In this document: positions 36,204-64,000 of the stretch, piece by piece | Layout of the letters: every line of letters begins with the position of its first letter | Numbering within the stretch: position 1 is the stretch's first letter | From: Terriglobia bacterium | Lineage (GTDB): Bacteria > Acidobacteriota > Terriglobia > JAJPHL01 > JAPKYU01 | Direction: 5' to 3' | NCBI GenBank assembly: GCA_965218055.1 | Contig: CBDCKA010000001.1 | Coordinates: 840,953 to 904,952 of the forward strand | Length of the DNA stretch: 64,000 nucleotides | Translations under genes and position numbers: made by a program | Notes under the pieces: generated by a model | The model's input: only the letters and a program-made list of their open reading frames with translations | Databases searched by the model: none | Told to the model about the DNA's origin: nothing

Positions 36204-36554
<351 letters not shown>

Positions 36555-39089: not shown

Positions 39090-39440
<351 letters not shown>

Positions 39441-39684: not shown

Positions 39685-40443
39685 ATGAAGCTGATCCCTT
39701 GGGTCATGGCATTGGTGGCCATTACAGTCACTGTGAGCGCCGCAGATTTGCTGGGGCAAGACGCCACACCGGCGCAGGCCGACAAACCCTGGAGCCTGTC
39801 CTTCGACGCCACGTTCGTAAATAAGTATATCTGGCGCGGCCAAAACCTGAACAACAACGCATCCCTCCAGCCCGGACTGGCTTTCACTTACAAGAACCTC
39901 ACGGTTTCTTCGTGGAGTCAATTCTCGCATACAGGCTTCGGCGATAGCGGCGTGGCCGGCAACCACTGGACCGAGCATGACTTCACTGTTGACTACGGCT
40001 TTGCGCTCAGCGAGAAGATCTCTGTGAACGTAGGCTGGATTAATTACGCGTTTCCGAATTTGCAGGATGGCCGCTACACCAACGAGTTCTACGGGGGCAT
40101 CAGCGCCGACACGATTCTCCAGCCGAGCTTCAGCATCTACGTTGACCCGCATCAGGGAGACGGCGTCTACTACAACCTCGGCATCGGTCATGGTCTGGAC
40201 CTGGGCAAAGGCTTTGGTCTCGGTTTGTCAGCTTCGGCTGGCCTGAACCAGGGCCAGTGGATCGACATCACGACGGTTTCCGATGTGGTGCTCGGGGTCA
40301 GCCTAGACGTTCCGGTCAGCGACAACGTCACGTTGTCCCCGTTCTGGAACTACATTACGGGCAATGATAGCCTGAGGACGGGACCGGACGCGTTCTACTT
40401 CAGCGGCCACATCGCGGGGGTGAATCTGAACATCAGCCACTAA
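39685..40443 (+). CDS. predicted outer-membrane beta-barrel protein (copy 2)
   Basis: 252 aa. Signal peptide MKLIPWVMALVAITVTVSA. Paralogue of 36816..37580. Preceded by an AT-rich 245-bp spacer. Confidence 0.7.
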   Translation: MKLIPWVMALVAITVTVSAADLLGQDATPAQADKPWSLSFDATFVNKYIWRGQNLNNNASLQPGLAFTYKNLTVSSWSQFSHTGFGDSGVAGNHWTEHDFTVDYGFALSEKISVNVGWINYAFPNLQDGRYTNEFYGGISADTILQPSFSIYVDPHQGDGVYYNLGIGHGLDLGKGFGLGLSASAGLNQGQWIDITTVSDVVLGVSLDVPVSDNVTLSPFWNYITGNDSLRTGPDAFYFSGHIAGVNLNISH

Positions 40444-40844
40444 TCTCCTCCACTGTATTTCTCCTCCACCGCATAGATCAACATGATCCTGGCCGGCCTG
40501 ATCTTAACCTTCTCTTCGCCCCGTTAGGCGGCCGCACAGTGGCCGACTGTGGCGGTGACATCCTCAGGTTGGTGCTGGCCGCTGAGCTGAAAGCAGCCCA
40601 CACGAACGGGGTTGCCTGCCGACCCAGAGACGGCTGGACGCGCGTTTGCAGACCTGTATCCCACCATTGCCTCCCCGCTTGATTCCTGCAAAGCGTGGGA
40701 TAGTGTAAGATAAGATTGGCTTTTTGTGAGCCAACTCCAGCTGGTGCAGGTCTGCCAGCAGCGCGGACGCAGTGCGAATTATGCCTTCGCTTGCTTTGCG
40801 GCCATGGAAGGACAGGTAGTCGAACTCTAGGGAAACACCGTCTC

Positions 40845-43243
40845 ATGTCCACAGAACTAACCCGACCGCAAAGAGCCACGGAACTGGGCCGACCGCTAGG
40901 AGAGGAGGAGCTTGCCGACGAAGCACTCACCCAGGCACTGTCTCATGCACACGCCCAGAAGACCGATGTGCTGGACCTTCTGGTGGTGGAAAAGAAGTTC
41001 AGCGAGGAGGCGGTGGCCGAAGTCCTTTGCCCGGCGGATGCGGCTGCCCCGGGTCAATCTGGCAGCCACCGTTCCGGAACCGGATGCCATCAAGCTGGTG
41101 CCGGAAGGGATGGCCCGCAGGCACCAAGTCGTGCCCCTGAAACTGGAAAACCGCTCCCTGGTGGTGGCTATGGCCAACCCCGCCAACATGGACGCCCAGC
41201 GTGACATCGAGTTCTCCACCGGAAAGACCCTGAAGATCCTGGTGGCGACCCGCACGGAAATCGTGGACGCGCTGGAGAAGACCTTCGCGACGGGCGAAAT
41301 GCTCAAGGACTTCCTGGAAAATATCAGCGACGTCCACAATTTCGAGCTGGTGGAAGAAAGCAAGGCCGAGGAGGTCGATCTGAAGGATTCTTTGGGCGGA
41401 GCGGAGTTGCCACCGGTGGTGAAGATGGTGAACCTGGTGGTGTACGACGCCATCCGCAATCGGGGCAGCGATATCCACCTTGAGCCGACGGTCAATGATC
41501 TGAAGGTCCGGGTGCGGATCGACGGCGTGATGCGCGAGTTTATGCAGCTTCCCAAGTGGGTGTGCCAGCCTGTGGTCTCGCGCATCAAGATACTGGCAAA
41601 ACTGGACATCGCCGAACGGCGCGTGCCCCAGGACGGCCGCCTGAAGGTGGCCATCGAGGGGCGGAACGTGGACATGCGCGTCTCCACCTTGCCCACCCAC
41701 CTGGGAGAGAAAGTGGTGATGCGCATCCTGGGTTCGGGGCAGGTCCCCAAGATGACTGAGCTAGGCTTTGAATCCGAGGATTTGGAAGCAATCCTGGGAG
41801 CGACGCAGAATCCCCAGGGTATGCTGCTGGTGACCGGCCCCACCGGCAGCGGCAAGACAACCAGCCTCTACTCGTTGTTGAATCATCGCAAGAGCCCGGA
41901 AGTAAACATCATCACTGTAGAAGATCCGGTGGAGTACCAGTTACCGGGGATCAACCAAGTTCAGATCAATCCCAAGGCCGGGTTGACCTTCCCTGCCTGC
42001 CTGCGCTCTAGCCTGCGCCAAGACCCGGACATCATTTTGGTGGGGGAAATCCGAGACCAGGAAACGGCCGAAGTGGCCTTCCACGCCTCAATGACCGGCC
42101 ACCTGGTGCTCTCCACCCTGCACACCAACAGCGCGCCGGCCACCCTCAGCCGCCTGCTGGACCTGGGTGTGGACCCGTTTGTAGTGGGTTCCACGGTGAT
42201 CCTGGTGATGGCCCAGCGACTGGCGCGGGAGGTGTGCCCACACTGCAAAGTAAATTACTCTCCGCCCGAGATGGTGCTGAAGCGTCTGAACCTGCCTGCC
42301 GACGAGGTGTACTTTCGCGGCGCCGGGTGTCCTCAGTGTAGTTTTTCCGGTTTCTCCGGCCGAACTGGCATCTACGAGGTGCTACAGGTGAACCCGGCCG
42401 TGCGCGAGCTATTAACCGAAAAGCGCCGGAAGCGGAAATCCGCAAGGTGGCCGTTCGTAGCGGAGGATTTTCCAGCCTGCTCCAGAAAGGGCTGGCCAAG
42501 GTGAGAGCAGGTTTGACCACGCCGGACGAACTGCTGCGGATCCTTCAGGTCGAAGAAGAGGAGGTAGCCGCCTGTCCAAATTGCCGTGCCCAAATCGACC
42601 CGGATTTCACCGTCTGCCCTTATTGCAGCCGGTCTCTAAAGTCCGTCTGCCGCGAGTGCCGGCAGCAGCTCCGTCCTAAGTGGACAATCTGTCCATATTG
42701 CGGCACTCCCGCTGAGGAGTCAGAAGCGGCGGCCGGGGGGCGGATGCCTTCCTTGGCGGACACAACGGGCTCGGCCATGCCGACTCGTCAGAATCACCCT
42801 CCGACCGCACCGGCCCCCGCCTCGTCCGAGGTCACAGCGGACCGGGCTCAGGCACCTGCTGGCTCCCCTGAGACAACCGCTTCTCCGGGGAAGACACCGG
42901 AAGCCGCTTTCGTTCCGCCCCGTTCCACCAAGCCCCCCAAGCAGGTGAAGATCCTGGTAGTGGACGACGATCCCTCCATCTAGATTGTCCTGCGCAAGAG
43001 CTTGGAGCAACTGCCGTTGCCCTCTGAGATCTTCACTGCCTCCAGTGGAGGAAGTACAGCCGGACCTGATTCTGTTGGACGTGATGATGCCTGAGGTCGA
43101 CGGCTTTACCGTGTGCCAAAAGCTGCGGGAAAACGTGCGCACCACCTTTATCCCCATCATCATGCTCACCGCGAATCCGGATGAAGAAAATCGCACTAAG
43201 GGCTTTCTCGTGGGCACAGACGACTACATGAATAAGCCGTTCC
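40845..43243 (+). pseudogene. GspE/PilB-like secretion ATPase fused to a double zinc ribbon and a receiver (REC) domain; disrupted by 2 frameshifts, 1 in-frame TAG and a 3'-truncating deletion
   Basis: T2SSE_N domain MSTELT...EEAVAEVL then a +1 shift (extra T near 41016-41018) into ARRMRLPRVNLAAT... Walker A GPTGSGKTT and tetracysteine CPHC...CPQC are present. A -1 shift near 42423 (aag|cgcc) restores ...EIRKVAVRSGGFSSLLQKGLAKVRAGLTTPDELLRILQ. That frame runs on without a stop into CPNC..CPYC / CREC..CPYC, a Pro/Ala linker, and KILVVDDDPSI-TAG(42981)-IVLRKSL...DLILLDVMMPEVDGF...YMNKPF. Confidence 0.7.
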
Positions 43244-43244
43244 C

Positions 43245-44100
43245 AGTTTGTCCGGCGGGATACCCGGCCCGTAGTTGCGGACGGAGAAACGCACCCGGCG
43301 ATCGATCTCACAGACTGCGGCTTCCACCGCCGTACCAGCCGGCGCATATTTGATGGCGTTGGAAAGTAGGTTCGTCAGGACTTGTTCCATCCGGTCGCGG
43401 TCCGCCATAACGGGCGACACCGCGCCGGACGGCAAAACCACCAGGTGGATAGAGACCCCCTCTGCATAGGTCCGCAGGCCGTTCATGGCGCGGCGGAGCA
43501 GTTCGAGGGGCTCCAGCAGTTCCAGGTTCAGCTCGGTCTTGCCGGCTTCGATCTTGGAAATATCCAGGATGTCGTTGATCAGCCGGTCCACTGCCGACTG
43601 CCCGATCTCCAGCAACTCTCGCACCGAATCGGTAATTGGTCCAGCGTAGCACCCAGCAACAGATCCAGCGACCCCTTGATCGAGGTCATTGGGGTCCGCA
43701 GCTCATGGGAAGCCACCGAGATGAACTCGTTCTTCATCTCGTCGACTTCCTTAGCCTGAGTGACATCGTTCAACGAGCAGACGTAACCGATCAGGCCGCC
43801 CTCAGGATTGTAGATCGACGCGGTGGTCTGCTCAATGTAGCGGAAATCCGGGCGATGCCACTCATAGACCATCTTGCTGGCAGTTTCCGGGTTGCAGGCG
43901 AGCCGCACTAGTTGTTGTCGCATTCGATCTTCTGGCTCAACCAAGTTCTCCAGCAGGCTGGGAGGAAGGCAGATATGCCTGCCGAGCACAGCGGCCGGGG
44001 AAAGACCGGTCATCTCGCCGATCTTGCGGTTGATCCACACCATCCGCCACTGCGCGTCGCACACGACGACCCCGCTGGGAAGGTTTTCTAGGGCCGTAAA
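43245..44100 (-). pseudogene. PAS-domain sensor histidine kinase, frameshifted and 3'-truncated
   Basis: ORF 43579..44064 gives PAS plus H-box [24 protein letters not shown] frame break near 43600-43630 leads into ORF 43196..43624 (MRELLEIG...DILDISKIEAGK...N-box LLSNAIKYAPAG...G1 box). It ends after GIPPDKL, abutting the truncated receiver on the other strand. Confidence 0.6.
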
Positions 44101-44137
44101 TAGGTTTCCGGTGATAGTTTTCTGTCGGGATCACCTG

Positions 44138-44525
44138 TTATTTCTCTCTGCCCGCGTCTTTCAGAATCTGCCGAATTTGGGCGGTCAGTTGGATGGGGTC
44201 AAACGGTTTGACCAGATAGCCGACCGCGCCGAGCGCCAGCCCTTTCCGAATCTCGGTTTCCTGTGCTTTGGCCGTGAGAAAGATGACAGGGATGTGGCGG
44301 GTGGCCGGATCGGCCTTGAGGCGACGGCAGGTTTCGTAGCCATCCATACGCGGCATCATGGCGTCCAACAAAATCACGTCGGGCCGTTCAGTGCTCACTT
44401 TCTTCAGACACTCCTGGCCGTTGCTGGCCACCACTACTTCCCAATGGCCCTGGAACTGGAAGGCTCATGCGCGCAACTTTCTGAATATCCTCCTCATCTT
44501 CCGCGAGCAACACCTTGTGAATTTC
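44138..44525 (-). pseudogene. CheY-like single-domain response regulator with frameshift
   Basis: MEIHKVLLAEDEEDIQKVARMSL is in one frame. ...VVASNGQECLKKVSTERPDVILLDAMMPRMDGYETCRRLK...VGYLVKPF is in another. Break near 44455-44470. Confidence 0.6.
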
Positions 44526-44536
44526 CATAGGTCGTG

Positions 44537-45937
44537 TCAAGACCCTTCGGTCTCGGGCTGGCGACCGAGGATCGACCGCGCTATCTCCACCAGGGCACGC
44601 GCATCAATGGGCTTGCTGACGAATTTCTCCGCGCCCATGGCCATAGCCTGGCCCGGGTCCTCCACGACCGACATGCGAATCACCGGAATGCTCCGGGTGC
44701 GATCGTTTTGTTTGAGCAGGTGGAGCAATTCAAAGCCACTCATGTCGGGCATGAGTAAATCCAGAGCAATGAGGGCAGGCTGATGGCATTCTGCTATTTT
44801 CCACCGCTTCCTCGCCTCGGTCGACGGCCCAGGCCCGGTAGCTGTTTGCTATTGAAAATGCCGCACATTGCCCGGGCCACGTCCTGGTTGTCGGTTCACC
44901 ACCAGGACGAGGGGAAGAGGCTGCTGCTCGGGGTGCGCCGGGGGCTGTCGCCCCAAGCGTGGCCGCCAACTCTGGCTCAGTGCAGGCCGGGGAGTGTAAA
45001 GAAAAACGTGGAACCCTGCCCGACTCTCGTGTCGAACCAAGATGCGGTCGCCGTGCCGTTCGATAATCGCCCGGGCAATCGCCAACCCCAGGCCCGAACC
45101 CTGGTGCTCCCGGGTCAAAGTATCCTCTGCCTGGGAAAATTTGCTGAAAATTCGCTTTTGAGCCTGCCGAGGAATACCTTTACCCTGGTCGCGCACCGAC
45201 ACCTCCACAAACGGGGCGCCATTCTGCATCACGCGGCGAGCTGCAACGGAGACGGTGGCCCCGCGAGGAGAATACTTGATGGCATTGGAAAACAATGAGC
45301 TGAGAGCTTGTTCCAGGCGCTCCCGATCAGCGTTGGCTGGAGGCAGGTCGGGCTCAATTGGGGCTTCTAGCGCCACATTTTTCTTCTCCGCACTCGCCGA
45401 ATGGCTGTTGAGCTCGTGCTGGATACTCTCCGCCACGGAAATGGGCTCCACGCACAAGGGTAGGCGGCGGGTTTCCAGCTTGAACATGTCCAGAATGCTG
45501 TTAGTTAGCGAGACGAGCCGGTCCGTATTCTTTCCCGCCAGTTCCAGTAGTTCTCGCAATTCGGGAGCCAGCGAACCCGCCGCCCCACCCAGCGCAAGTC
45601 CCAGCCGAACCTTTGATGGCCGTCAGCGGTGTCCGCACGGCACGCTTGGTCGGCTTCCAGCTCGGGGGGACTTTGGACCTGGACCACAGGCATCAAATAA
45701 ACGCGCAAGCTTCCCAGTGCACCGGCCAGCGGGAAAACCAATTCCGCCGTCAACGGGAGTCGTTTGCCGTATAGCAGCCAATTGTTTTTGAAACGCCTCT
45801 GAATCGTGGACGTAGTTTTTGAAAAGGCCAGCAATCTGAGGAAGTTCCAGCTGTTTTAGTTCCTCCGGGTCCAGCTGCGCCAGGTTGGCAGCCCGCTCGT
45901 TCGCCATAGCCTCCATTCTGGACTGCGTCATCTTCAT
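44537..45937 (-). pseudogene. hybrid histidine kinase (HisKA + HATPase + C-terminal REC), at least 5 frameshifts
   Basis: Receiver pieces are spread over three frames within 44750-44880 (LVLVVNDNQDVARAMCGIF / YRAWAVDRGEEAVE / KIAECHQPALIALDLLMPDMSGFELL...). The HATPase is intact (GSGLGLAIARAIIERHG). The H-box ...RTPLTAIKGS is in a different frame from ...LAPELRELLELAGKN (break near 45575-45600). The N-terminal part 45623..45937 is also split across frames. Confidence 0.55.
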
Positions 45938-46529
45938 GGATGCCAGAGGCCGGGTGGTGATAGGGACTTATGGTGCTGAGCTTCCTGGCCTTCGGGGGGG
46001 TTCTGGCCTTGTGGATTCACCTCATTCATGGGAACCCGCCATTTGTTCTCAAAAAGACCAGCCCCGGCCGAAGCCAGCCCCGGAGTTGCAAACCGTTGCT
46101 GATCATACGCAGTGTTCATCGGGAAACAAATTACTGGTGCCGGTTGCGCAGGCACGGCAGCGAGCACCTCGGGCACCCCAACACTGTAGCGGTCTGTTCT
46201 GCATGGCAGGGTTTGCCTCTGGAGCACCGGCATTCCACCAACGCCGCGCTGCTTTAGAGCGATGCCCGGGGCGCGACGGCCCGTCCTCGGCTATTCATCT
46301 TGTCCAGGAGCGGACGACGCGCGCAAGCAGCAGTGCACCAAAGGCAAGTGCGGCCAGTAGGGCGGGCGAGACGGCCGCCAGCACCAGCAGGTCGCGATCC
46401 AGGATCAGCCGATGAGAAACGTGCAGCGAGCTGGCAATCAACAGGACACCCATGGCGAAATAGAGTGAGCGTAACACCTAGGTTGCCATTTTTCCGCCTG
46501 AGCCCATAAGTGGTCAACCAACGCCGAAC

Positions 46530-53664: not shown

Positions 53665-55941
53665 TTACTCGCTCTCCTGCCTGAGCGCCTTGCGCAATTC
53701 CTTCAATTTGTCGTGGAACTCCTTGGTGGCCATCTTGGCCTCGCCCATGTCCTTGATCACCCTGGGCGTGAGCAGGATGATCAGCTCGTTGCGGCTGGTG
53801 GAATCGCGGGTGGTGCCGAACAATAGCCCCAAGCCGGGAATGCGCCCTAACAGCGGCACTCGATTGGTGGAGACGATCCGGGTTTCCGAGATGATGCCGC
53901 CCAGGGCAATGGTCTCCCCGTCCTGCACCGTCACCTGAGTGGACACGGAACGCTTCTGGATCGAAGTCAGAGTGCCGCTGCTGGTCGGCAAGCTGACTTC
54001 CTGGTCGATACGCAACGTCACCAGCCCGCTGGGATTGATGCGCGGTGTCACCGACAGGATCACGCCGGTATCCCGCCGCTGGTAGGAACTGACAGGTGAG
54101 ATGGTCCCGAAGGCTACACCCTGCTGAGTCTGGATGGGAATCTCCTGTCCTACCTGGATGCGCGCCTCGGTGTTATTGCTGGCCAAAAGCGTGGGCGCGG
54201 AAAGCACCCGTGTGCGTCCCCGGTTCTCCTGGGCATTCAGGAACAGGAACAACTCGCGGCTGCGGCCTATCAAGGTGCCCACCGAAGCGCTCAGGCCGGC
54301 GTTAGGAAACGTCTCCGTCCCGAAAGCGCTGAATTGCCCAACGGGATTCCGGGAGGCGCTGCTGCGCCGCTGGAGGAACGCTTCGACCCCGAAGGACAGC
54401 GCCCCCGATAAGGTGACCTCGTACACCTTGGCTTCAATGAGCACCTGCCGGGGCGCCACGTCCAGCTCCTTCAGGGTCTCAAGGATGACTTCGTAGTCCT
54501 GCGGGGTAGCCTGGACGACCAGGGTATTGTTGATGGGGTCCGGAACAATGCGCGCCGGACTCTGCAACATTCCACCCGGCACAGCAGCTATGAAGATTTG
54601 CCTGGAACCCCGGTACATAGAACCCCGCGATGTTTGGCCCACCCCGCCGACAGGAAACGACACACCTCCGGGCGTCATTCCTCCACCAGCCGATCCCATC
54701 CCGCCGGGCGGTATCATCCCCGGCGCCGCCATCCCTGGCGCTGTCATCCCGGGCGCCGACGCTCCTGTTGCCTCCGCACCCATCATCGGCCGAGCTGCTC
54801 CGTAAAGGCCCGCCAATACGAAAGCCAACTCCCCCGCCGCCCTGTTTTCCACCTTGTAGGCAAAGTTCTGCAGTCCCCCACGGCGCACGGGCTTGTCCAG
54901 CTTCTCAATCCACTGCTGCACTTCCGAGTACACCTCGGAATTCGGAGTCGCCACCAGGATGGAGTTGATTCGCTCCAGTGCAATAAACCGCACCGCCGAG
55001 CCTTCCTTCGAGAGGGCATACGCCTTGAAGATTTCCTCCAGGTCCTTGACCAGGCTGCTGGCCTGGCTGTTCTCGATGGCAAACAACCGGACCCGCTGCT
55101 GCTCCAGCGCCGAGGTGTCAAACAGGTTCACCATCTCCATTAGCCGCTTCAGGCTGCGGCTGGTGTCGGTGATGAGCAGGATGTTGCCCGGCTCGTGGGT
55201 CACGATGTGGCCCGCTTCCGACAGGTAGCTGCTCAGGATTTTCGACATATCCGCGGCGGTGACGAAGCTGAGGGCGACCACGTTCATCACCATGCGGTCA
55301 TCAGGCGGCAGGCTGGCTCCAGTGGGATCCTGGGTGAGCGGTAGCGGAACACGCGGCGCTCCCTTCAGGGGCACGATCCGCCAGAAGCTGCCGCTCTGGA
55401 CGGCCGAGGCCCCGTTGGCCCGCAGGATGGCCTGCAGCAGGGGCAGCAGGTCCTCATGACTCAGGTTGCCCAGGGTGTTGATGTTCACCACACCCTTCAC
55501 CCCAGGGTCCACGACATAGTTCATCTTGAGTTCGGCGGCAATGATCCCAATCACCTGAAGCAGGTTGGCATTCTCCAGGTGGAGGCTGATGCGCGCCCCA
55601 GCTCGCGTCTTCTCCGTTGCCGGTGCCGCTTCCGCCTCCTGCGCGGGAGGCTCTGCCGATGGCTGGTCTTGAGGCTGGGCAGTCGGTTGTTGCGGTTCCT
55701 GAGCCTGAGGCTCTGTCGGTTCCCCCTGCGCTGGCGGCTGGACCGATTGCTCGGTTTGAGACTGCGCAGGTGGTTGCGCGGGTTCCTGGACCGGCGCGGC
55801 CTTCCTCGGAGTGCTGCCTGCGGCGACCGTCGACATCAGCCCCCAAGCTGCTAAAACTAGGACGGCGCTACCCAGTTGGCCTCTCAGTACACCGGATGTG
55901 AAATTCTGCATCCTCTTCATGGTTCGTTTTATTCGGCTCAT
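53665..55941 (-). CDS. gspD: type II secretion system secretin GspD
   Basis: Within ORF 53665..56007. Start MSRIKRTMKRMQNF. Signal peptide, Pro/Gln-rich linker, N0-N3 domains, and secretin domain ...GETIALGGIISETRIVSTNRVPLLGRIPGLGLLFGTTRDSTSRNELIILLTPRVI. Confidence 0.9.
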   Translation of the reverse strand: MSRIKRTMKRMQNFTSGVLRGQLGSAVLVLAAWGLMSTVAAGSTPRKAAPVQEPAQPPAQSQTEQSVQPPAQGEPTEPQAQEPQQPTAQPQDQPSAEPPAQEAEAAPATEKTRAGARISLHLENANLLQVIGIIAAELKMNYVVDPGVKGVVNINTLGNLSHEDLLPLLQAILRANGASAVQSGSFWRIVPLKGAPRVPLPLTQDPTGASLPPDDRMVMNVVALSFVTAADMSKILSSYLSEAGHIVTHEPGNILLITDTSRSLKRLMEMVNLFDTSALEQQRVRLFAIENSQASSLVKDLEEIFKAYALSKEGSAVRFIALERINSILVATPNSEVYSEVQQWIEKLDKPVRRGGLQNFAYKVENRAAGELAFVLAGLYGAARPMMGAEATGASAPGMTAPGMAAPGMIPPGGMGSAGGGMTPGGVSFPVGGVGQTSRGSMYRGSRQIFIAAVPGGMLQSPARIVPDPINNTLVVQATPQDYEVILETLKELDVAPRQVLIEAKVYEVTLSGALSFGVEAFLQRRSSASRNPVGQFSAFGTETFPNAGLSASVGTLIGRSRELFLFLNAQENRGRTRVLSAPTLLASNNTEARIQVGQEIPIQTQQGVAFGTISPVSSYQRRDTGVILSVTPRINPSGLVTLRIDQEVSLPTSSGTLTSIQKRSVSTQVTVQDGETIALGGIISETRIVSTNRVPLLGRIPGLGLLFGTTRDSTSRNELIILLTPRVIKDMGEAKMATKEFHDKLKELRKALRQESE

Positions 55942-55954
55942 CTCAGATTCTGCC

Positions 55955-56752
55955 TCATTGGGTTTTCTGCGCCGCCGGGAGATCCTCATACCAGGTCTGT
56001 ACGCCAAATGGCGTTACCCGGTCGTATCTCTTCCGGTTACCTTCGACGGTGACGGTTAAATAGCGATCCCCGGTGGGGGAGCCGGTCGCTGGGGCGACAG
56101 CGGGAGCGGTGGCGGCTCCTGGGGTGGGTGTAGACGCCGGCCCTGCAGAAGAAGCTGAAGGGGCAGCCGGAACAGCGGTCAACACCTGGTCGGCCGCGGT
56201 GCCGGCCGGGCGGGCGGGCCGGACTGCGGCCCGCCCGGCGGCCTGGCGCACGTTTTCGGCTGATTCGTAGACATCAATGGTGGTCTTCTGGCCCTCGAAT
56301 TCGATAATCACCTGGTGCTCGGCGATTTCCGCCACGCGATAGCCACCGATTTCATCGCCCACCTTGAGCCGGCGGAATGTGGCCTGCCTGGCCTGTTGCG
56401 GCTCGGCCATCAGGGCCACCGGACCGCTGCCGAGGTTCACGGTTCCAATCACCAAGGGGACCGGCGGCCGGACCTTGGATACGCTTGCCAACGCCTGGTC
56501 GTTGTTGCGGTCGGGGCTGAACAGGTTGCGGGTAAGCAGCACGGAGTGGCTGTCCGGGACAGCCGCCAGTCCAGCTTCAGGCATGCCTGCTTTGGACACA
56601 CCTGCCCAGGGGGTGGCTGCTGAGGTCACAAACTGCTTGTAGCGGGCATGATTGCTCTGCCAGGTATCGTGGATGGCGGCAGCAACCCACACCGCCAGCG
56701 TCAAGAGGGCCAGGTTAAGATAGGTTATCGGTTTGCGCATGCTTTCTCTCAC
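55955..56752 (-). CDS. T2SS accessory protein (GspC/GspN/PilP-like), single N-terminal TM
   Basis: 265 aa. TM helix ITYLNLALLTLAVWVAAAI, then a periplasmic domain and an Ala/Pro-rich tail. Located between the gspM-like gene and gspD. Confidence 0.5.
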   Translation of the reverse strand: MRESMRKPITYLNLALLTLAVWVAAAIHDTWQSNHARYKQFVTSAATPWAGVSKAGMPEAGLAAVPDSHSVLLTRNLFSPDRNNDQALASVSKVRPPVPLVIGTVNLGSGPVALMAEPQQARQATFRRLKVGDEIGGYRVAEIAEHQVIIEFEGQKTTIDVYESAENVRQAAGRAAVRPARPAGTAADQVLTAVPAAPSASSAGPASTPTPGAATAPAVAPATGSPTGDRYLTVTVEGNRKRYDRVTPFGVQTWYEDLPAAQKTQ

Positions 56753-57411
56753 GATTTGGGAGTTGGCGCGGGCTCGGCGAACATCAGCCCACGAATCACC
56801 ATTCGCACCGTCACCATCTTTTGTGGCTTTTGTGGTTTTTGTGTCCGACCGGGACGCGAGGGCAACGCCCTAATGGAGAGCTGATCCAGCGCCAGTACCT
56901 TGCGACTGGCGTGGGCAGCCAGCAGAAAACTCGTGAGCTGGTCCAGCCTGCATTGGAACGACAACGACAAGGGCACGACGTTATAGCTCGCCCCGGCGAC
57001 CTTGAGAACCCGCACCGGCCGGAAGGCGGCGTTGCGCATTTCCATGCCCTGCTTCGCCATCAGTTGCTTGATCACTTCCTGCAACTCGGCCGCAGCCAGG
57101 GCCGACGTGCTGCTGCTCAGCAGGCCTTTCTCGGCTTCAGCCAGACGAGCCTGCATTTCCTGAAACTCCTTTTTCTGATCTGCGGCCAGGGCTACAAGTC
57201 GCCGGTATTTGCGCAGGGTCTTCTCCTTCAGTGGCAGCGAGGCACGGAGCTTCTCGGCGGGGTCCATGACGGGCAAGACAAGCAAATCCAGCAGCAGGAA
57301 CAGAGCAGTGGCAGCTGCCAGCAAGAGCAGAGCCCGCTGGTCTCGAGCGCTCAAAGAACGCAAGAAAGACGCAGCTGTCGCTGGCTCCCTCTTCCTGCCT
57401 CCGTTAGTCAT
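56749..57411 (-). CDS. gspM: T2SS protein GspM-like
   Basis: 220 aa. One TM helix (ALLLLAAATALFLLLDLLVL) plus a coiled coil. Overlaps the gspL stop. Confidence 0.6.
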   Translation of the reverse strand: MTNGGRKREPATAASFLRSLSARDQRALLLLAAATALFLLLDLLVLPVMDPAEKLRASLPLKEKTLRKYRRLVALAADQKKEFQEMQARLAEAEKGLLSSSTSALAAAELQEVIKQLMAKQGMEMRNAAFRPVRVLKVAGASYNVVPLSLSFQCRLDQLTSFLLAAHASRKVLALDQLSIRALPSRPGRTQKPQKPQKMVTVRMVIRGLMFAEPAPTPKS

Positions 57412-58939
57412 GACTGGCCACCTCCTCCGCTCGTGCCTGCGTCTCCCGCAACCGCATCCGGATCTGGAAGGCCTCCCGCCCTTGTTTGTTCTTGGTGATC
57501 GCGGTGATGAATTCCGGCTGTTGGAAATGCGGCGACTGATTGATGGCCTGTAGAATGCCGGAAGCGGATTGGGCTTGCCCGGAGGCCGTCACCTGGTTAT
57601 CCTTAAAATGGAGTGTTTGCAACCAGGCCGTATCGGGAACCAGGCGAGTTAGTTCCTTCCACGCCTCGAGCCTGAGCGCGATATCCTGCCGCTGGCCCTG
57701 TAGCAGATCCCATTTCAACAACAGCGCCTGGTGGCGGGAATTCAGCTGTTCCACATGCTCCACATGGGGCTGCAACTTGCTGATCTCCGAGTTCAACCAG
57801 GAGGAATAGAAGCGGTCCTGCACCCATGTGGTTGCGAGCCAGGCAGCGCCGAGCAACAGCACAAGTACCACCAACGCATAGGCCGACGCATGTGCCCAAT
57901 GGGAGCGCCAGTGAGATCGCCAGTGAGAGCGGTAGCGCTTCTCCGCCGGCAGCAGATTCCAGCGCAGGCCGGGGGGGGAGGCCAACCCCGGCAGGCGGAG
58001 TTCGAGCTCTGGCAGGGCCGCCGCGTAGGCCACAAGATGCTTTCGGAGGTGGAACTCCGCTGGCCCCGCCTCGGGAATGACCACCGGAATATCCTCTGCC
58101 GAGGACCGGTTCGCTGGTGCAGAGTCTTCTGCTGCCGGTTGTTCTCTGACTTCCGATTTTTGCGCGATGACTTCGCCAGTTTCTAGCAGCGGCGGACTAT
58201 CCTGGGGATCGAGTCGCAACTCGGCCACGCAAAACTCCACTTCGCGCTCGAACGAGGTCGTAGCCGCAACTTCTTTAGAGTAGAACGAGCCATCGGGTGC
58301 GACTCCCAGCAGTTCCAGAACTTGCCCGCAGTGATCCATCAACAACAGCGGGCGAGGCAGTCCTGGCTTGTTCCGGCCCCGATGGAAGGAAGCCCCGCGC
58401 AGCGCCTGGTACAGCACGGCTGTAGAAAGGGTGAAGCCGGCCACGTCCACGCCCGCCTGGCAGAACCACTGGTAGAGCTGATCGAGCGCACTCTTCTCCA
58501 CAAGCGCTACAGCCACCCGCAGCCGCCTTCCGAGGCCCTCCTCCGAGGCGCCGGTCCCATTGCCCGCGCCGCGCGCAGGCGATTCGGGCAGCAGCGCGTA
58601 GTCGAAATAGACGCTGCCTTCCTCGAAGGGGTGGAGCTGATCTACCTGGTAGGCCACCGTCTGCCTCAGTTCTCGCCCAACTTCGGGGGGCAATTCCAGC
58701 GTTCGCACCAGGCCGGCTCCGCGCGGGAGCGCCACCAGCGCGCTGGTCGTCAACGCATGATTCTCTTCGCGGAAGCGCCGGTACTGCTGGGCCACCTCGG
58801 CCACCGGCCGGGTGCGGAAATCCTCAATCCGGAGGAATCCGCTGACCCGCAGGCGACGCCCGCGGCCGCGCAGGGAGACGGCTTCCAGGTGACTCCCCCG
58901 AATTGCAATGCCGATGCTGGTCCCCAGGTGGACGGTCAT
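57404..58939 (-). CDS. gspL: T2SS protein GspL-like (actin-like cytoplasmic domain + TM + periplasmic domain)
   Basis: 511 aa. Position and architecture fit GspL. Contains an RSHWRSHWRSHW tandem repeat before the TM helix. Confidence 0.65.
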   Translation of the reverse strand: MTVHLGTSIGIAIRGSHLEAVSLRGRGRRLRVSGFLRIEDFRTRPVAEVAQQYRRFREENHALTTSALVALPRGAGLVRTLELPPEVGRELRQTVAYQVDQLHPFEEGSVYFDYALLPESPARGAGNGTGASEEGLGRRLRVAVALVEKSALDQLYQWFCQAGVDVAGFTLSTAVLYQALRGASFHRGRNKPGLPRPLLLMDHCGQVLELLGVAPDGSFYSKEVAATTSFEREVEFCVAELRLDPQDSPPLLETGEVIAQKSEVREQPAAEDSAPANRSSAEDIPVVIPEAGPAEFHLRKHLVAYAAALPELELRLPGLASPPGLRWNLLPAEKRYRSHWRSHWRSHWAHASAYALVVLVLLLGAAWLATTWVQDRFYSSWLNSEISKLQPHVEHVEQLNSRHQALLLKWDLLQGQRQDIALRLEAWKELTRLVPDTAWLQTLHFKDNQVTASGQAQSASGILQAINQSPHFQQPEFITAITKNKQGREAFQIRMRLRETQARAEEVASHD

Positions 58940-58982
58940 TTCCGATACGCTCGCTTCTTCAAGTCCTCGTTCATAGCCCAGT

Positions 58983-60029
58983 TCACAAAATGACCCGCTG
59001 CTCTTCTACTGCCTGTTCATCCCAGGCCACTAGCTCGGTCCGGCCGCTGGCTTCCCGGCGGAAGATGGCGCGCACCGACGCTCGCGTGGCTGAGCCGCGG
59101 AGCCGGCCCGTGGCAGTCAGGGTGAACAGGTCCGAGATTCGATAGATTCCAAGGTGGGGCAAAGCCTCTGCGGGAATCGAAATTGGCAACTCGGTCAGGC
59201 TTTGGTAGAGCTTTTCCCGGCGTCCGGCGACGACTGCACGTACCCGCTCCTGGTCCATGCCCGGCACGCTCAGCAACGCCTCGTAGGGAGCGTAGTTCAC
59301 ATCCAGCCTTGTGAAGTTCCCATACACCGTCAGCAGGCGGTTGAACCCGCCCCGCCGAACCAGACGGTCATCCGCGTCGCGCTCCATCCAGCCGTAGAAC
59401 AACTCTGGCGTGACCCCCTTGACCAACAGCAGTTCTTCGACCCGCTGGAAGGGCTGGTGCGCTGCCTGGTAGGGCTGCGCCAGACCGGCGTAAAACTGGT
59501 CAAAGACGCTCCCGGCGCTCGAGGTGGCCGGCGCACGCCAATCGGCAATGGCCCGAGTGATCTCCCGGACGTCCATGTTCCCCACCCCGGCGGCTTGAAA
59601 CAGCGTTTGCAGCCGCTCCACCGGGGCGGTGTTGACGTTTAGCTTGCCCGCTTCGGAGGCCACCCGGACACGCGCCGTCCCGGTAGCGTAGGAAAACTCC
59701 AGATAGGGCCGGCTTGGTTCGTAAAGCAATTTCTGTTCCGCGTCCCGCAAGCCGGGGGTTTGTACCAAGTAGAGCGCCTGTTCCAGAGCCCCGCGCGCCA
59801 GGAAGCGGCCTTGCTCAGCTTCCAGGCGGTAGCGGGTGGCGGCCAGCTCGGTGCGCACCGAAAGAGCCAGCGCCAGTGCTACCAAAGACAGCGCAGCCGT
59901 CAGCCACATGACGAGCAACAAGACGGCGCCTCTGTGGGAATTCGAACTGGTCTGGGAATTCGAGCCCCCATGGGAATTCGAGATGGTCGGGGAATTCGAG
60001 CTCGGACTCCGGCCCACCGACTTTGGCAT
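58983..60029 (-). CDS. gspK: T2SS minor pseudopilin GspK
   Basis: Within ORF 58983..60236. Start MPKSVGRSPSSNSPTISN (ATG at 60029, 2 nt after the gspJ stop). GspK motif GKLNVNTAP. The N-terminal region carries an 18-bp x4 tandem repeat. Confidence 0.75.
   Translation of the reverse strand: MPKSVGRSPSSNSPTISNSHGGSNSQTSSNSHRGAVLLLVMWLTAALSLVALALALSVRTELAATRYRLEAEQGRFLARGALEQALYLVQTPGLRDAEQKLLYEPSRPYLEFSYATGTARVRVASEAGKLNVNTAPVERLQTLFQAAGVGNMDVREITRAIADWRAPATSSAGSVFDQFYAGLAQPYQAAHQPFQRVEELLLVKGVTPELFYGWMERDADDRLVRRGGFNRLLTVYGNFTRLDVNYAPYEALLSVPGMDQERVRAVVAGRREKLYQSLTELPISIPAEALPHLGIYRISDLFTLTATGRLRGSATRASVRAIFRREASGRTELVAWDEQAVEEQRVIL
59936..60007. repeat. 4 tandem copies of an 18-bp unit GGGAATTCGAnnnnnnnn (each with an EcoRI site) inside gspK
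   Basis: gggaattcgaactggtct / gggaattcgagcccccat / gggaattcgagatggtcg / gggaattcgagctcggac. In-frame; encodes a Ser/Asn-rich repeat. Confidence 0.8.
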
Positions 60030-60031
60030 TT

Positions 60032-60754
60032 TCACCGGCTCGCTCCGGCGATGCTCAAGCGCGCGTAGAGAGGCACCGGCTCCAGGCCCCTCCACGTGGC
60101 TTCTTCCGCGCCCACCTGTAGGGCGACTGCCGCGGGCATCTCCCTGCGCTCCAATAACGACCAGGAAGATACCCACCGTGCCAGATCGGGCCGTTCGTGC
60201 CGGTACTGGAACCGGCACTCGCGGAGTCCTTCCCACAGCAGCAGGGCCCGCTCTGTGTCAAAGGGACGCAGCTGCGGTTGGTCCCCTTCCGGAGTGCGCA
60301 GCAGGTCCACCACCACGCCAGCCAGCTGCTCGCTGTCGAGCGCCTGCCGCTCTTCGAGCCACAGCTTCCAGGTCCGGTCACGTTGCCGCTGGGCGAAGTA
60401 GTCGGCCACCACGATGCCTCCCCGTCCGCGCTCCAGCGCCGAATACGAGGTCAGAAAGACCAGGCGGCGCTCCTCGGCAAAGAAGAACGGCATCTGCTGG
60501 CGCCGGTTGGGTGACTCCACCACGATGTTCCGCAGCAGGTGGTTGGAAAGCTGGAAATGCAGGATGTCCTCCACCTGGGTCACCCGGCGCAACTGCAGAA
60601 CCGCCTGCTGCCCCTTCTCCCAGGCCCGCAGGCCTATCCGCAGCGAGGTGAGAGCCGCGACAGCTACCAGGCCGGCGATGGTGGTGGCGGCCATCAACTC
60701 CAGCAGCGTCAGTCCCGCGCTGCGTTGCTTACTGCGCTGGCAGTAGTGGTTCAT
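60032..60754 (-). CDS. gspJ: T2SS minor pseudopilin GspJ
   Basis: 240 aa. Prepilin-type N-terminus MNHYCQRSKQRSAG|LTLLELMAATTIAGL. Confidence 0.75.
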   Translation of the reverse strand: MNHYCQRSKQRSAGLTLLELMAATTIAGLVAVAALTSLRIGLRAWEKGQQAVLQLRRVTQVEDILHFQLSNHLLRNIVVESPNRRQQMPFFFAEERRLVFLTSYSALERGRGGIVVADYFAQRQRDRTWKLWLEERQALDSEQLAGVVVDLLRTPEGDQPQLRPFDTERALLLWEGLRECRFQYRHERPDLARWVSSWSLLERREMPAAVALQVGAEEATWRGLEPVPLYARLSIAGASR

Positions 60755-61202
60755 ATTTACAGGTCTCGAACGTGGCGCGTTGCTCTCCGCTGGCGCCTTT
60801 CCAGAACACCGTCAGGGTCACCAGCACCAGGGGCGTCAGCGCCGCTTGTCGTTCGCCGGCGGCTGCACCGGCAGGATTCCAGCGCCGAATTTCCGCCTCC
60901 CAGCGAAACGTTTCATCCCACCGGCCAGCAACCCGGCCGGGCACTAGCGTCTGCTCTATGAGCAAACGGTTCAATTGCGAGCGACCCACCAGTGTCGCTT
61001 TCTCGTAAGTTTCCGTGCGCGCCAGGTTGCGCAGCGAGCCGGAAAGCCCGCTCATCAACGCAGCCACAGCAATGCCCAACAGCGCCATGGCCACCAACAC
61101 TTCCAGCAGCGTGAACCCATGGGTTGCAGGTTGCCGGAGTTGGAAGGAGGCTCTTCCCCCGCCGCTGCTTCCAACATCCCGAATCGCAAGTCCAACACCC
61201 AT
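60729..61202 (-). CDS. gspI: T2SS minor pseudopilin GspI
   Basis: Within ORF 60729..61214. Start at the second Met (TGATG overlap with the gspH stop). Prepilin motif ...THG|FTLLEVLVAMALLGIA, with an unusually long leader (about 29 aa). Confidence 0.65.
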   Translation of the reverse strand: MGVGLAIRDVGSSGGGRASFQLRQPATHGFTLLEVLVAMALLGIAVAALMSGLSGSLRNLARTETYEKATLVGRSQLNRLLIEQTLVPGRVAGRWDETFRWEAEIRRWNPAGAAAGERQAALTPLVLVTLTVFWKGASGEQRATFETCKYEPLLPAQ

Positions 61203-61681
61203 CAGCGCTCCCACTCCACGCGGGGCAGCGCCGTCAGCACATCGAACTTCACCGTGACGGCACGGCCGCGGGCATTGATCAGCCGCAGTCCCACTCGGGG
61301 CATCCCCCCGTTTGGCGGGAAGATAAAGGTGCGCATACGGCTTGGCTCGACCACGATTTCTGGAGGCAACTGCCAGCTCCGACGGTAGGACGGCTCCCCG
61401 CTGGCTGTGGCCCCTTCCAGGTCCTCCAGCTCGACCCGGCGCCGTTCCGAATCCACCGTCACCTGGCAGACGGTCTGCTGACGCAAGGCCCGCACGCGGG
61501 CGTAGCGGAAGGTGTTCGCCAGCCGGTCGGCGGCCGACTTCAGCCGCAACGTATCCAGACCGGCGGTCATGCTCGGGAACACGATGGCTCCCAGCACGCC
61601 GACGATCGTCAGCACGACCACCATCTCCAGCAGCGTGATGCCGCGACAGCGCCCCCGGCGAAACTGTTGACCGCTGCTCAC
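61202..61681 (-). CDS. gspH: T2SS pseudopilin GspH
   Basis: Within ORF 61202..61831. No in-frame ATG exists before the prepilin motif, so the likely start is GTG at 61681: VSSGQQFRRGRCRG|ITLLEMVVVLTIVGVLGAIVFP. Confidence 0.65.
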   Translation of the reverse strand: MSSGQQFRRGRCRGITLLEMVVVLTIVGVLGAIVFPSMTAGLDTLRLKSAADRLANTFRYARVRALRQQTVCQVTVDSERRRVELEDLEGATASGEPSYRRSWQLPPEIVVEPSRMRTFIFPPNGGMPRVGLRLINARGRAVTVKFDVLTALPRVEWER

Positions 61682-61715
61682 AATCGTCAATGATTCAATC
61701 CTCAATTCCCCACTC

Positions 61716-62213
61716 CTAGTGTTTCCAGCTCGCCACATCGCTGTCTTCGCCCTCTCCGCCTTCTCTCCCGTCAGCACCGTGGGAAAGGATGTCGGGTTCT
61801 TCGCCGTGCTCGCCCGGGTACCGGTAGACATAGGGCTGCCCCCAGGGATCGTCCGGGATATCCTGGGGCAGGTAAGGACCGTCCCAGCGCTCCACTTCCG
61901 CGGGTTTGACCCGGAGAGCTTCGAGTCCCTGCTCGGTGGTGGGAAACCTCCCAGTGTCCAGCTTGTAAATGCCCAGGGCGGTCATGAAGCCGTTCATTTG
62001 TTCCCGAGTTGCGGTCTGCTTGGCAGCGCTGACTTTCTTCCACATGCGCGGCAGCACCAGCGCGCTGAACAGGGCGATGATGGTCACCACCACCAGCAGT
62101 TCAATCAGCGTGACGCCGCGCTCACCGGCCTGGCCGCCGAGGCGCGGAGGCACCTTGGAAAGGTTTCTTGCCGGTACGGTCGCGACTTCACCCTCAGATT
62201 GGTTTTTCTTCAT
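61716..62213 (-). CDS. gspG: T2SS major pseudopilin GspG
   Basis: 165 aa. ...ERG|VTLIELLVVVTIIALFSALVLP prepilin motif and GspG signature DPWGQPYVY. The leader is long (about 32 aa). Confidence 0.85.
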   Translation of the reverse strand: MKKNQSEGEVATVPARNLSKVPPRLGGQAGERGVTLIELLVVVTIIALFSALVLPRMWKKVSAAKQTATREQMNGFMTALGIYKLDTGRFPTTEQGLEALRVKPAEVERWDGPYLPQDIPDDPWGQPYVYRYPGEHGEEPDILSHGADGREGGEGEDSDVASWKH

Positions 62214-62261
62214 GCAATTGCTCCTCTGCGCCTCTGTGTGTCTAGTGTCCCTGTGGCTCTC

Positions 62262-63479
62262 TTACAGCGGGACATCATTGATGCTGACGATGCCCAACAA
62301 CATGGACAGCACCATCCCACCGACCAGCAGCCCCATGACCAGGATCACCAGCGGCTCAAATAGAGCCGTGGCGCGCTTGATCGCAGCCCGGGTGTCTTTG
62401 TCGTAGATATCAGCCATGCGCTGGAACATGGCATCCAGCCTGCCCGTCTCTTCACCGACGGTGAGCAGGTGTCCCGCCAGGGGTGGAAAGGCGCCGGTCT
62501 TCCGCAGCGGCCCGGCTAGACCCTCGCCGCGCTGCACGCCCTTGGCGACCGCCGTCAGCGACTCTTCCATCACAACGTTGCCCAGCAGCCCCTTCACGAT
62601 TTTCAAAGACTGCAGCAGCGGCACGCCGTTGGCCAGCAGCGTGGCCATGGTGCGGGCGAACCGCGCCGTCTCCACTTTGCGGAACACGTCGCCGGCCAGC
62701 GGCAGCTTCAGATTCCACGCGTGCCAGCGCTGCCGGCCGGCGGGAGTACGCACGTAGTAACGGGCGCCAACAATCAGGGCCGCGAGGGCCAGCGCTGCCA
62801 TCCAGCCGTAACGGTGGAGCAGGTCGCTGGCCACCAGCAGCAGGTAGGTGGGCGTGGGCACGGGGACGCCCGATTCGGAAAAGACCTGCGCAAATCTGGG
62901 AATCACGAAGTGCATCATCACAAAGATCGAGCCCACCCCGACCAGCGCCAGCAGCAGCGGGTAGATCATCGCCGAGATCAGGTAGCCGCGCAGCTCGTCG
63001 GAGGAGCTCTCCAACTCCGCCAGCCGCTCCAGCGACACACCGAGAGCCCCAGACGCCTCACCGGCACGGATCATGTTCCGGTACAGATCGGAAAACACCT
63101 GCGGGTGCGCCTCCAGGCTGTCGCCCAGCGACTTGCCCCCCTTCAGCTCCTGCAGGACGTCGGTAATGACGCTGCGGAATGTTTTCCGTTCCGTCAGCTC
63201 TGCGCAAATGGATAGCGCGCGGTCCAGCGGCAGCCCGGAATTGACCAGCGTGGAAAGCTCCTGGGTGAAGAAGAGCCGGTCACGCGAGCGCACGCGCCCC
63301 CGGGCGAGCCAGGGCAGCGGCACCCCCGCCGCGGCGGGCTGCCTGCGGCTGCCGATGTAGACCGGCACCAGCCCCCGCCGTTGCAACTCGCGGGCGATGA
63401 CCTTCTCAGTCGCTCCGAAAAGAGCGCCCTCAGCGGGTTTGCCCGCCATCGTCACCGCGCGATAGAAATACTCAGGCAT
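62262..63479 (-). CDS. gspF: T2SS inner-membrane platform protein GspF
   Basis: 405 aa. Duplicated GspF domains and 3 TM segments. Confidence 0.9.
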   Translation of the reverse strand: MPEYFYRAVTMAGKPAEGALFGATEKVIARELQRRGLVPVYIGSRRQPAAAGVPLPWLARGRVRSRDRLFFTQELSTLVNSGLPLDRALSICAELTERKTFRSVITDVLQELKGGKSLGDSLEAHPQVFSDLYRNMIRAGEASGALGVSLERLAELESSSDELRGYLISAMIYPLLLALVGVGSIFVMMHFVIPRFAQVFSESGVPVPTPTYLLLVASDLLHRYGWMAALALAALIVGARYYVRTPAGRQRWHAWNLKLPLAGDVFRKVETARFARTMATLLANGVPLLQSLKIVKGLLGNVVMEESLTAVAKGVQRGEGLAGPLRKTGAFPPLAGHLLTVGEETGRLDAMFQRMADIYDKDTRAAIKRATALFEPLVILVMGLLVGGMVLSMLLGIVSINDVPL

Positions 63480-63532
63480 CTTTTACACTCGCGCCCGCAT
63501 CCTGCCGGCAAGCGTCCACCGACATGGCGGCG

Positions 63533-64000
63533 CTACACATCCTGGGTCACCCGAACCACTTCCTCCACTGTGGTCACGCCCCGATAGACCTTGTCCCAGC
63601 CGTCCTCCTTCAAGGTGCGCATCCCATTGGTTCGGGCAGCGGTGGTCAGCACCTTGGCGTCGGCGTTCTCGACCACCAGGCGGCGAATCTCGTCATTCAC
63701 ATCCATCAGCTCCAGGATGCCCTGGCGCCCGCGGTAGCCGATGTGGGAACAGCGCTCGCACCCGGCGCCGCGATACACCGGTTGGTCGAGCGCCGCCTGG
63801 CGCTCATCTACCACCCGGCAGTGCGGGCAGATCACGCGCACCAGTCGCTGGGCCAGCACCGCCAGCAGCGAGGAGGCGATCAGGTAGTTCTCCACGCCCA
63901 TGTCGGTTAGCCGGGTAACGGCGCTGGGCGCGTCATTGGTGTGCAGGGTGGAGAAGACCAGGTGGCCGGTCAGGGCGGCGCGGATGGCAATCTCGGCCGT
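63533..64000 (-). CDS. gspE: T2SS ATPase GspE, C-terminal part (gene continues beyond window end)
   Basis: ORF 63533..63901 and upstream same-frame sequence give ...[12 protein letters not shown]...CPHCRVV...[20 protein letters not shown] (His box and tetracysteine). Confidence 0.9.

Follow-up and report, generated by a model that had tools for sequence, protein, structure and literature searches.

The stretch of DNA analyzed here (hereafter the window) comprises 64,000 nucleotides from a Terriglobia bacterium (GenBank assembly GCA_965218055.1, contig CBDCKA010000001.1, positions 840,953 to 904,952), and positions 40845-43242 of its plus strand are very probably a recently inactivated pseudogene from an acidobacterial, phosphorelay-linked module built around a PilB-like fusion protein of ~800 amino acids, this being the best joint explanation of the observations described below. 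Ancestrally, one open reading frame (ORF) encoded an ATPase, a double zinc ribbon, a Pro/Ala linker and a receiver, as an earlier note on this DNA had read it; that note placed the start correctly at 40845 and the end at 43243, one base off the last receiver base at 43242. It had counted on a single frameshift and an otherwise contiguous receiver, whereas five lesions were detected, and the receiver is broken by an in-frame TAG and a 23-bp deletion and has lost its last 20 codons.

The fusion gene opens with an ATG at 40845, and three-frame translation recovers its product only in four frame segments (40845-41019, 41021-42408, 42408-43043 and 43045-43242) with an internal stop, rather than as an uninterrupted start-to-stop ORF. 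The first segment (40845..41019) holds codons 1-58 of the N-terminus, as recovered by translation and by tblastn of residues 1-62 of the intact ortholog P0001, and the initial reading frame is lost past 41019. The second (41021..42408) contains the MshEN domain and the PilB-type ATPase core, identified by Pfam and by motif conservation. Out of frame with this core follow the last ~55 codons of the ATPase C-terminal domain (AINRKAPEAEIRK...LRILQVEEEEVAA; 42408..42572), assigned from translation and the family alignment, then the double zinc ribbon (42573..42701; Pfam DZR), whose pattern CxxC-x12-CPYC-x8-CxxC-x10-CPYC keeps 8/8 cysteines, and an unconserved Pro/Ala-rich linker (42702..42947), delimited by linker lengths, substitution rates and model confidence as given below. 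The receiver is divided into a first part (KILVVDDDPSI, a stop, then IVLRKSLEQLPLPSEIFTAS; 42948..43043) and a second part (VEEVQPDLILLDVMMPEVDG...LTA...YMNKPF; 43045..43242) carrying the phospho-acceptor Asp, the Thr and the Lys, both assigned from Pfam Response_reg and translation.

The Pfam scan of the frame-corrected translation returned the four domains in the order that the earlier note had proposed, namely MshEN (residues 66-150, E 5e-22), T2SSE (PF00437; residues 188-565, E 2.5e-130, 434.9 bits vs a cutoff of 24.9), DZR (PF12773; residues 577-620, E 1.1e-9, 38.8 bits vs a gathering cutoff of 27.3, with two CxxC...CxxC ribbons as expected of a double zinc ribbon) and Response_reg (PF00072; residues 703-800, E 1.9e-18). 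Matches in this order and of this strength are far too good to be fortuitous. The ATPase motifs are still legible in the window, including the Walker A GPTGSGKT, the Walker B VGEIRD, the His box TGHLVLSTLHT and the tetracysteine CPHC...CPQC, and profile score and motifs together place the sequence in the T2SSE superfamily of secretion/pilus ATPases. All five signature residues of the receiver are likewise legible (VVDDD, LLDVMMP, MLTA and NKPF), and the frame-corrected sequence exhibits no radical change at invariant columns. The 519-552-aa "PilB" and 178-aa "zinc-ribbon" ORFs produced by gene callers are pieces of one dead gene.

The lesions were located by comparison with two contigs, L001 (ENA ERZ25067264, a 1.31-Mb contig, 99.6% identical to the window) and L002 (ENA ERZ26167216, a 3.87-Mb contig, ~85% identical across the module), the latter carrying P0001 as an unbroken ORF of 824 aa at the syntenic site. 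Lesion A is a 1-bp insertion of an extra A (GAG>GAAG) at 41020, found by alignment, which shifts the frame at codon 59; it is private to the window, being seen neither in L001 and L002 nor in P0005. Lesion B is a 1-bp deletion of one G (GAGGCT>GAGCT) at 42408..42409, evident from the sequence and from alignment with L001 and L002, after which the shifted frame meets a stop at 42504; it is the -1 shift that had been proposed at 42423, a real deletion placed ~15 nt too far downstream. Lesion C is an in-frame CAG>TAG in the receiver (42981..42983; DDDPSI-Q-IVLRK, Gln in orthologs), seen in the sequence and in alignment, and lesion D is the junction of a 23-bp deletion (43043..43045; alignment) by which DGREALEQ was lost and the frame shifted. 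Lesion E is the junction of a 1051-bp deletion (43242..43244; blastn, alignment and the L002 gene map), corresponding to L002 10416-11466, which removed the last 20 codons of the receiver with its helix alpha5, all of the 258-aa J-domain gene and, from the 3' end of the convergent histidine kinase, ~55 codons, so that no uninterrupted (beta-alpha)5 receiver is left in the window copy. Lesions B-E are identical in L001, an independent assembly, and are therefore regarded as real mutations. With the frame restored, the ATPase runs into the zinc ribbons with no intervening stop, and P0001 reads straight through from the one into the others.

The parent architecture is conserved. Among the 120 best database matches to the corrected protein, 115 are intact proteins of 760-834 aa with MshEN, T2SSE, DZR and Response_reg (precomputed Pfam domains), originating from Acidobacteria, Terriglobia, 'Acidiferrales/Acidoferrales' and one 'Xenobia' metagenome-assembled genome (MAG), mostly from Acidobacteriota/Terriglobia MAGs. 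An assembly chimera was rejected, as the same domain order occurs in >100 intact homologs, and what had seemed a one-off architecture is a widespread conserved family in Acidobacteriota. Scored over the 115 homologs, the Walker A Lys and the His-box His are conserved in 115/115 and the Walker B Glu in 114/115, the checked tetracysteine and zinc-ribbon Cys columns each in 115/115, and the receiver residues D705, D706, D751 (the acceptor in P0001 numbering, corresponding to D730 of P0003), T781 and K803 each in 115/115, which supplies the acidic DD pocket, acceptor Asp, conserved Thr and Lys expected of PF00072; all eight zinc-ribbon cysteines are also invariant in a 50-sequence alignment. The linker, on the other hand, varies from 38 to 97 aa across the family and is unconserved. 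An AlphaFold2 (AF2) model of the full fusion P0003 (from GCA_040961615.1) had a mean predicted local distance difference test score (pLDDT) of 75; the N-domain, the ATPase and the receiver were modelled with confidence, the zinc ribbon with moderate confidence (pLDDT 55-73) and the linker at residues 620-672 as disordered (pLDDT 31-37). The members carry only generic database names ('PilB', 'TadA', 'T2SS/T4P ATPase family', T2SS being the type II secretion system, T4P the type IV pilus); the family is thus present in public databases and is not new sequence space, while its architecture and gene module are uncharacterised.

Searching the whole library with the ATPase tail, DZR and linker (window 42447-42980) gave 239 clusters at 50% identity and E<=1e-10, whose sampled members displayed three layouts: MshEN-T2SSE-DZR alone (639-723 aa), the same with a receiver (about 780-890 aa), and MshEN-T2SSE-DZR-REC with an extension of about 400-750 aa (1182-1528 aa in total). 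Examples of the third layout are P0135 (1513 aa), P0137 (1528 aa) and P0155 (1182 aa), in which the extension has no Pfam match.

Among solved proteins, P0003 is closest to Geobacter PilB (5tsg, 458 bits over residues 4-562) and Myxococcus PilB (3jc8, 453 bits), with 431 bits to Thermus PilF and ~368 bits to GspE/EpsE. P0001 misses both the PilB equivalog TIGR02538 (578.8 bits vs a cutoff of 675.65) and the GspE equivalog TIGR02533 (537.9 bits vs a cutoff of 630.25), and judging by these sequence scores the ATPase is nearer to type IV pilus (T4P) PilB than to GspE, being 'PilB-like' rather than PilB. The receiver is closest to those of PhoP/RpaA/YycF/PleD, i.e., the OmpR/PhoB sequence type, and ends in the conserved helix ...PFSVPELxARVxRLLRRTYGL. 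A regular-expression search for the relaxed 24-residue MshEN motif for cyclic di-GMP (c-di-GMP) (PMC5013675) matched 1/115 members, the window clade not among them, and c-di-GMP input through MshEN was accordingly not relied on.

In intact relatives the fusion gene belongs to a recurrent gene neighbourhood. A J-domain gene of ~260 aa trails it by 2-70 bp in L002, L085, L086, L087 and L088, its product carrying Pfam DnaJ at residues 1-70 and an HPD motif, and such a gene lies directly downstream in 8/9 assessable loci (including L005, L006 and L010), making it the most conserved neighbour. Seven of the nine assessable loci also have a convergent PAS-HisKA-HATPase kinase (~360 aa), usually followed by a ~130-aa single-domain receiver and a hybrid kinase-receiver of 513-632 aa, and several loci have a GGDEF gene in divergent orientation on the upstream side. 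At the syntenic site of L087 (73% identity) the complete module is intact, with an intact gene for a receiver joined to a metallo-beta-lactamase fold (407 aa, 6756-7979; Pfam) directly upstream of the fusion gene. In L086, a cNMP_binding-MshEN-T2SSE protein is encoded at 17513-18349, 7 kb from the fusion gene, so that Acidobacteria have another type of PilB-like ATPase with a sensor fused to it.

That the intact protein is an ordinary T4P PilB or type II secretion system (T2SS) GspE with a decorative tail, serving a standard machine, would agree with PilB and GspE being its best NCBIfam models, with its full-length alignment to Geobacter and Myxococcus PilB and with the annotation of the proteins as PilB in their sources. 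Both equivalog cutoffs are missed, however, and none of the platform, pilin or alignment-complex genes of such a machine was found near the fusion loci: pilin, PilC and PilM genes adjoin the fusion gene in none of the nine loci (within +-8 kb in L002 and L085-L088), where the conserved J-protein and phosphorelay genes stand instead. The genome of the window has a separate T2SS operon with its own GspE, L086 has the further PilB-like ATPase nearby, and the module is dispensable in several lineages, all of which makes an ordinary PilB or GspE an unlikely reading.

The dN/dS ratios (nonsynonymous to synonymous divergence) of the corrected window gene against L002 were 0.23 for the whole gene, 0.17 for the ATPase, 0.13 for the DZR, 0.034 for the receiver and 0.99 for the linker, indicating purifying selection over most of the divergence and therefore a gene that died recently. 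The module is ~85% and its flanks ~94% identical to L002 at the nucleotide level; this divergence was at first a candidate sign of relaxed selection and was dropped, as dS is also higher in the module. At the syntenic site, marked by a beta-propeller gene, the ammonium transporter gene Amt, P-II and a 254-aa gene, different fates were observed for the module. The gene breaks off behind '...AINRKAPEA' in L003, L083, L084 and P0392 (about 86%), where unrelated DNA is joined to it or comes next and the phosphorelay is missing; in L089 (87%) an IS240-family element truncates it near codon 485. In L002 and its cluster mates the ORF is open and has private, radical exchanges at positions that do not vary among 112 outgroup homologs, such as E401K at the Walker B Glu in P0001; R269L/T324A/D395V in P0393; T324A/G391V/Q448K in P0394; and R246P in P0395, where T324A hits Walker A. 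Either selection was relaxed before the ORF was disrupted, or these are long-read assembly errors, as several of the sister sequences are long-read metagenome assemblies in which single substitutions could include errors. In L002 the gene for the receiver and metallo-beta-lactamase fold is internally deleted to 82 aa, the hybrid kinase is split and insertion sequence (IS) copies flank the module. The module has therefore been lost repeatedly in this Terriglobia subclade, for which 'Terriglobia bacterium Langseth_Bin_00166' is the named relative, with at least two further independent losses in relatives. The earlier note had supposed an accessory ATPase copy that was free to decay; the decay is borne out, and the supposition was too narrow, since it is the whole module that decays and that has been lost independently in sister lineages.

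It might also be proposed that the loss of the tail is adaptive, the ATPase core surviving as a deregulated stand-alone motor while zinc ribbon, receiver and phosphorelay are shed. The breaks fall at codons ~485-530 in three independent lineages, where most of the ATPase ORF stays open (L001, 552 aa; L083/L003, 679-702 aa; L089, 494 aa), the dN/dS of the ATPase is low, and the corrected window sequence is free of radical change at invariant columns. Every truncation, however, drops the last ~40-80 C-terminal residues of the ATPase, including the invariant G535, L539, G550, E556 and R559 (P0003 numbering), and the window has an additional frameshift at codon 59. The 'intact' sister ORFs carry changes at catalytic columns (E401K, T324A), which argues for relaxed rather than maintained selection, and a low dN/dS mostly mirrors the history before the loss; a surviving stand-alone motor is accordingly improbable.

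Still less probable is that the frame breaks are sequencing or assembly errors and that the organism encodes an intact fusion. The source resembles a long-contig metagenome assembly, and P0007 (519 aa, NCBI/ENA), which is exactly the window's own ORF, lies on a 1.25-Mb contig; the 41020 insertion is lacking in the two closest assemblies, P0004/L001 and P0005, both of which give 552-aa ORFs without it. Against errors stand the presence of lesions B-E in L001, the same 552-aa truncated ORF in the third assembly (P0005) and the kinds of lesion involved, a nonsense substitution and deletions of 23 and 1051 bp being atypical of homopolymer errors. Over the 12.3 kb shared by the window and L001 there are just two single-base indels, at 41020 and 45896, both in pseudogenes, with no 1-bp indel in the intact flanking genes. 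Sequencing error was thus rejected for lesions B-E and kept as a possibility for the 41020 insertion. There is next to no likelihood that the 42408 shift is programmed recoding with two products, one the bare ATPase and the other also carrying zinc ribbon and receiver, for although the two frames overlap by about 100 nt (42342-42504) and gene finders call both an ATPase-only ORF and a DZR ORF, >100 orthologs encode the fusion in a single unshifted frame, the downstream part is itself destroyed by stop, 23-bp deletion and truncation, compared with L002 the site has simply lost a G, and by eye no canonical X XXY YYZ slippery heptamer was seen at the junction; this candidate was rejected as well.

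Around the fusion pseudogene the remaining genes of the module are also dead. Upstream, a 22-codon remnant of the gene for the receiver and metallo-beta-lactamase fold was found on the plus strand (40762..40827; tblastn of the L002/L087 neighbours), and downstream the J-protein gene is gone through lesion E. On the minus strand follow a 3'-truncated remnant of the PAS-HisKA-HATPase kinase with a frameshift near 43650-43678 (43244..44121; tblastn in two frames and translation), a remnant of the single-domain receiver, frameshifted near 44462 (44141..44528; tblastn and translation), and what is left of the hybrid histidine kinase-receiver, frameshifted several times and carrying at least two in-frame stops (44537..46030; tblastn and translation), in which the 45896 indel relative to L001 is located. 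Long contiguous ORFs fill the window on either side of about 40.4-46.5 kb; this 6-kb stretch is a decaying module, and only the module is dead while the rest of the window is intact. In L001 an IS (DDE_Tnp_1; 9247-10646) lies between the kinase and receiver remnants and is not present in the window, and a 49-bp segment beside its insertion point (window 44132-44180) has opposite orientations in the two assemblies.

An apparently intact T2SS-like operon occupies 53665..64000 on the minus strand (NCBIfam and Pfam) and is context, not part of the module, comprising GspD, M-like, L/PilN-like, K, I, H, G and F genes and the 3' end of GspE (63533-64000). A second, canonical gspE had been noted at the end of the window; the separate operon with its own GspE is confirmed, with the gene on the minus strand, position 63533 as its 3' end, and the gene running off the window. 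In this operon GspD scores above its NCBIfam cutoff, a T2SSG-domain pseudopilin is present and GspF reaches 383 bits vs a cutoff of 424. An intact DDE_Tnp_1_4 transposase (396.6 bits; 52098-53492, minus strand) shares its IS family with the two copies flanking the L002 module. Two paralogous pairs of P-II and a 252/254-aa gene (weak Gcw_chp match), at 36116-37580 and 39074-40443, flank an ammonium transporter gene, and a dense cluster of single-nucleotide differences between the window and L001 at 39982-40242, in one paralog of the pairs, looks like gene conversion between the copies. The transporter (37692-39038) is only ~33% identical to the syntenic L002 Amt, with the flanking P-II genes at 97-98%, and from this comparison appears to be a non-orthologous replacement. 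No RNA genes were detected in the window by Rfam and tRNA scans.

The parent protein combines an MshEN-type N-domain, a PilB-type hexameric ATPase, a double zinc ribbon, a disordered Pro/Ala tether of ~40-100 aa and an OmpR/PhoB-type receiver. The earlier note's idea that the receiver brings the ATPase under two-component control is plausible, considering the D-D-D-T-K residues of the receiver in 115/115 members and the kinases as conserved neighbours. In intact relatives the most likely mechanism is one in which the neighbouring kinases would run a phosphorelay that ends, by a phosphotransfer we infer, on the invariant Asp of the tethered receiver. Receivers of the OmpR/PhoB type typically undergo phosphorylation-driven dimerisation. 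Phosphorylation of the tethered receiver may likewise lead to dimerisation between subunits, probably via alpha4-beta5-alpha5, which could switch the assembly or activity of the ATPase hexamer, and the dedicated J-protein may recruit DnaK/Hsp70 to the motor and thereby couple the motor's state to it, much like the connections already described between PilB, DnaK and secretion of polysaccharide. The output of the motor in intact relatives could be pilus extension, secretion or signalling only. Tentatively, then, the intact relatives might represent an undescribed device in which a multi-kinase phosphorelay switches a PilB-type hexameric motor via a tethered receiver, and a dedicated J-protein, bearing a nuclease-like-fold domain, acts through DnaK to read the motor out or set it back, a possibility far less certain than the pseudogene itself.

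Several observations weigh against this account. The AF2 receiver model is of low confidence at residues 763-783, and the AF2 model of the full fusion, which shows domain folds and disordered linkers, comes without inter-domain confidence and is silent on the docking of receiver and zinc ribbon. The absence of pilin, PilC and PilM genes beside the nine loci leaves a PilB-type motor without the usual partners at hand. Full-text literature searching returned no description of a PilB/GspE-DZR-REC fusion, and no experimental study of family members was found in the literature. With regard to the pseudogene, the dS of the module against L002 (0.39-0.57) exceeds that of flanking genes (0.085-0.21), which hints at a different history, e.g., recombination, and not simple vertical decay; and lesion A, seen only in the window record, could be an assembly error.

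If such a device exists, it would be a self-contained phospho-controlled motor and Hsp70 module, maybe regulating a non-pilus output, e.g., polysaccharide export or surface behaviour. Being fused in cis, it would also lend itself naturally as a model of PilB control by response regulators, the switching of the T4P extension ATPase by PilG/PilH and PixG/PixH being mechanistically unclear so far; fusion of the receiver to the ATPase fixes stoichiometry and partner and would therefore be convenient for biochemistry and cryo-electron microscopy. The strictly conserved J-protein neighbour adds an independent genomic hint of a link between PilB-class motors and Hsp70, so far genetic only and seen in cyanobacteria and myxobacteria. 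The window copy, being a pseudogene, carries no functional information itself, and its value lies in pointing to the family and in being a clean example of module-level decay.

Compared with known systems, the fusion family shares with PilB (Geobacter metallireducens 5tsg/5tsh; Myxococcus xanthus 3jc8; Thermus PilF) the MshEN/N1, N2 and C-terminal ATPase domains, the Walker A, Walker B, His box and tetracysteine zinc site, and an alignment over residues 4-562. It differs in adding the double zinc ribbon, the disordered tether and the receiver, in scoring below the TIGR02538 cutoff, and in the location of its gene outside a pil operon with conserved J-protein and kinase neighbours. GspE/EpsE (Vibrio cholerae 1p9r, 4ksr) has the same ATPase superfamily and tetracysteine motif, and a true GspE operon is present in the window, but the fusion is more distant from it (~368 bits) than from PilB, falls below the TIGR02533 cutoff and has no gsp genes adjoining. 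Control of MshE/PilB by c-di-GMP (PMC5013675) offers a parallel in the N-terminal MshEN fold, a sensory input placed directly on the ATPase, and in the GGDEF genes near several loci, whereas in the fusion family the key Arg and Gln of the motif have moved or given way to other residues. Of MshEN associated with REC, the MshEN paper speaks in generic terms only (PMC5013675).

Further parallels are PilG/PilH of Pil-Chp (PMC12632253) and PixG/PixH/TaxP (10.1101/2021.06.11.447907; PMC11181946), in which a phospho-receiver carries two-component or chemosensory input to the extension motor; the PATAN-REC proteins PixG/PixH/TaxP bind PilB1 in Synechocystis (10.1101/2021.06.11.447907; PMC11181946). 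Their receivers are separate CheY-like or PATAN-REC proteins acting in trans, whereas that of the fusion family is covalently tethered and of the OmpR/PhoB type, with classical PAS kinases, not CheA, as neighbours. A functional link of a J-protein/Hsp70 system to PilB is found in Nostoc DnaK1/DnaJ3 and in M. xanthus PilB-StkA(Hsp70). In Nostoc, DnaK1/DnaJ3 is coupled to active T4P motors and DnaK1 binds PilB in two-hybrid assays (PMC9239167), and in M. xanthus PilB is a signalling protein for exopolysaccharide (EPS; PMC5544727), PilB and StkA taking part in EPS control (PMC5544727, PMC4319316). Unlike these systems, the fusion family shows a link that is genomic only, in adjacent genes at 8/9 loci, and its J-protein is, as far as tested, not a DnaJ3 ortholog.

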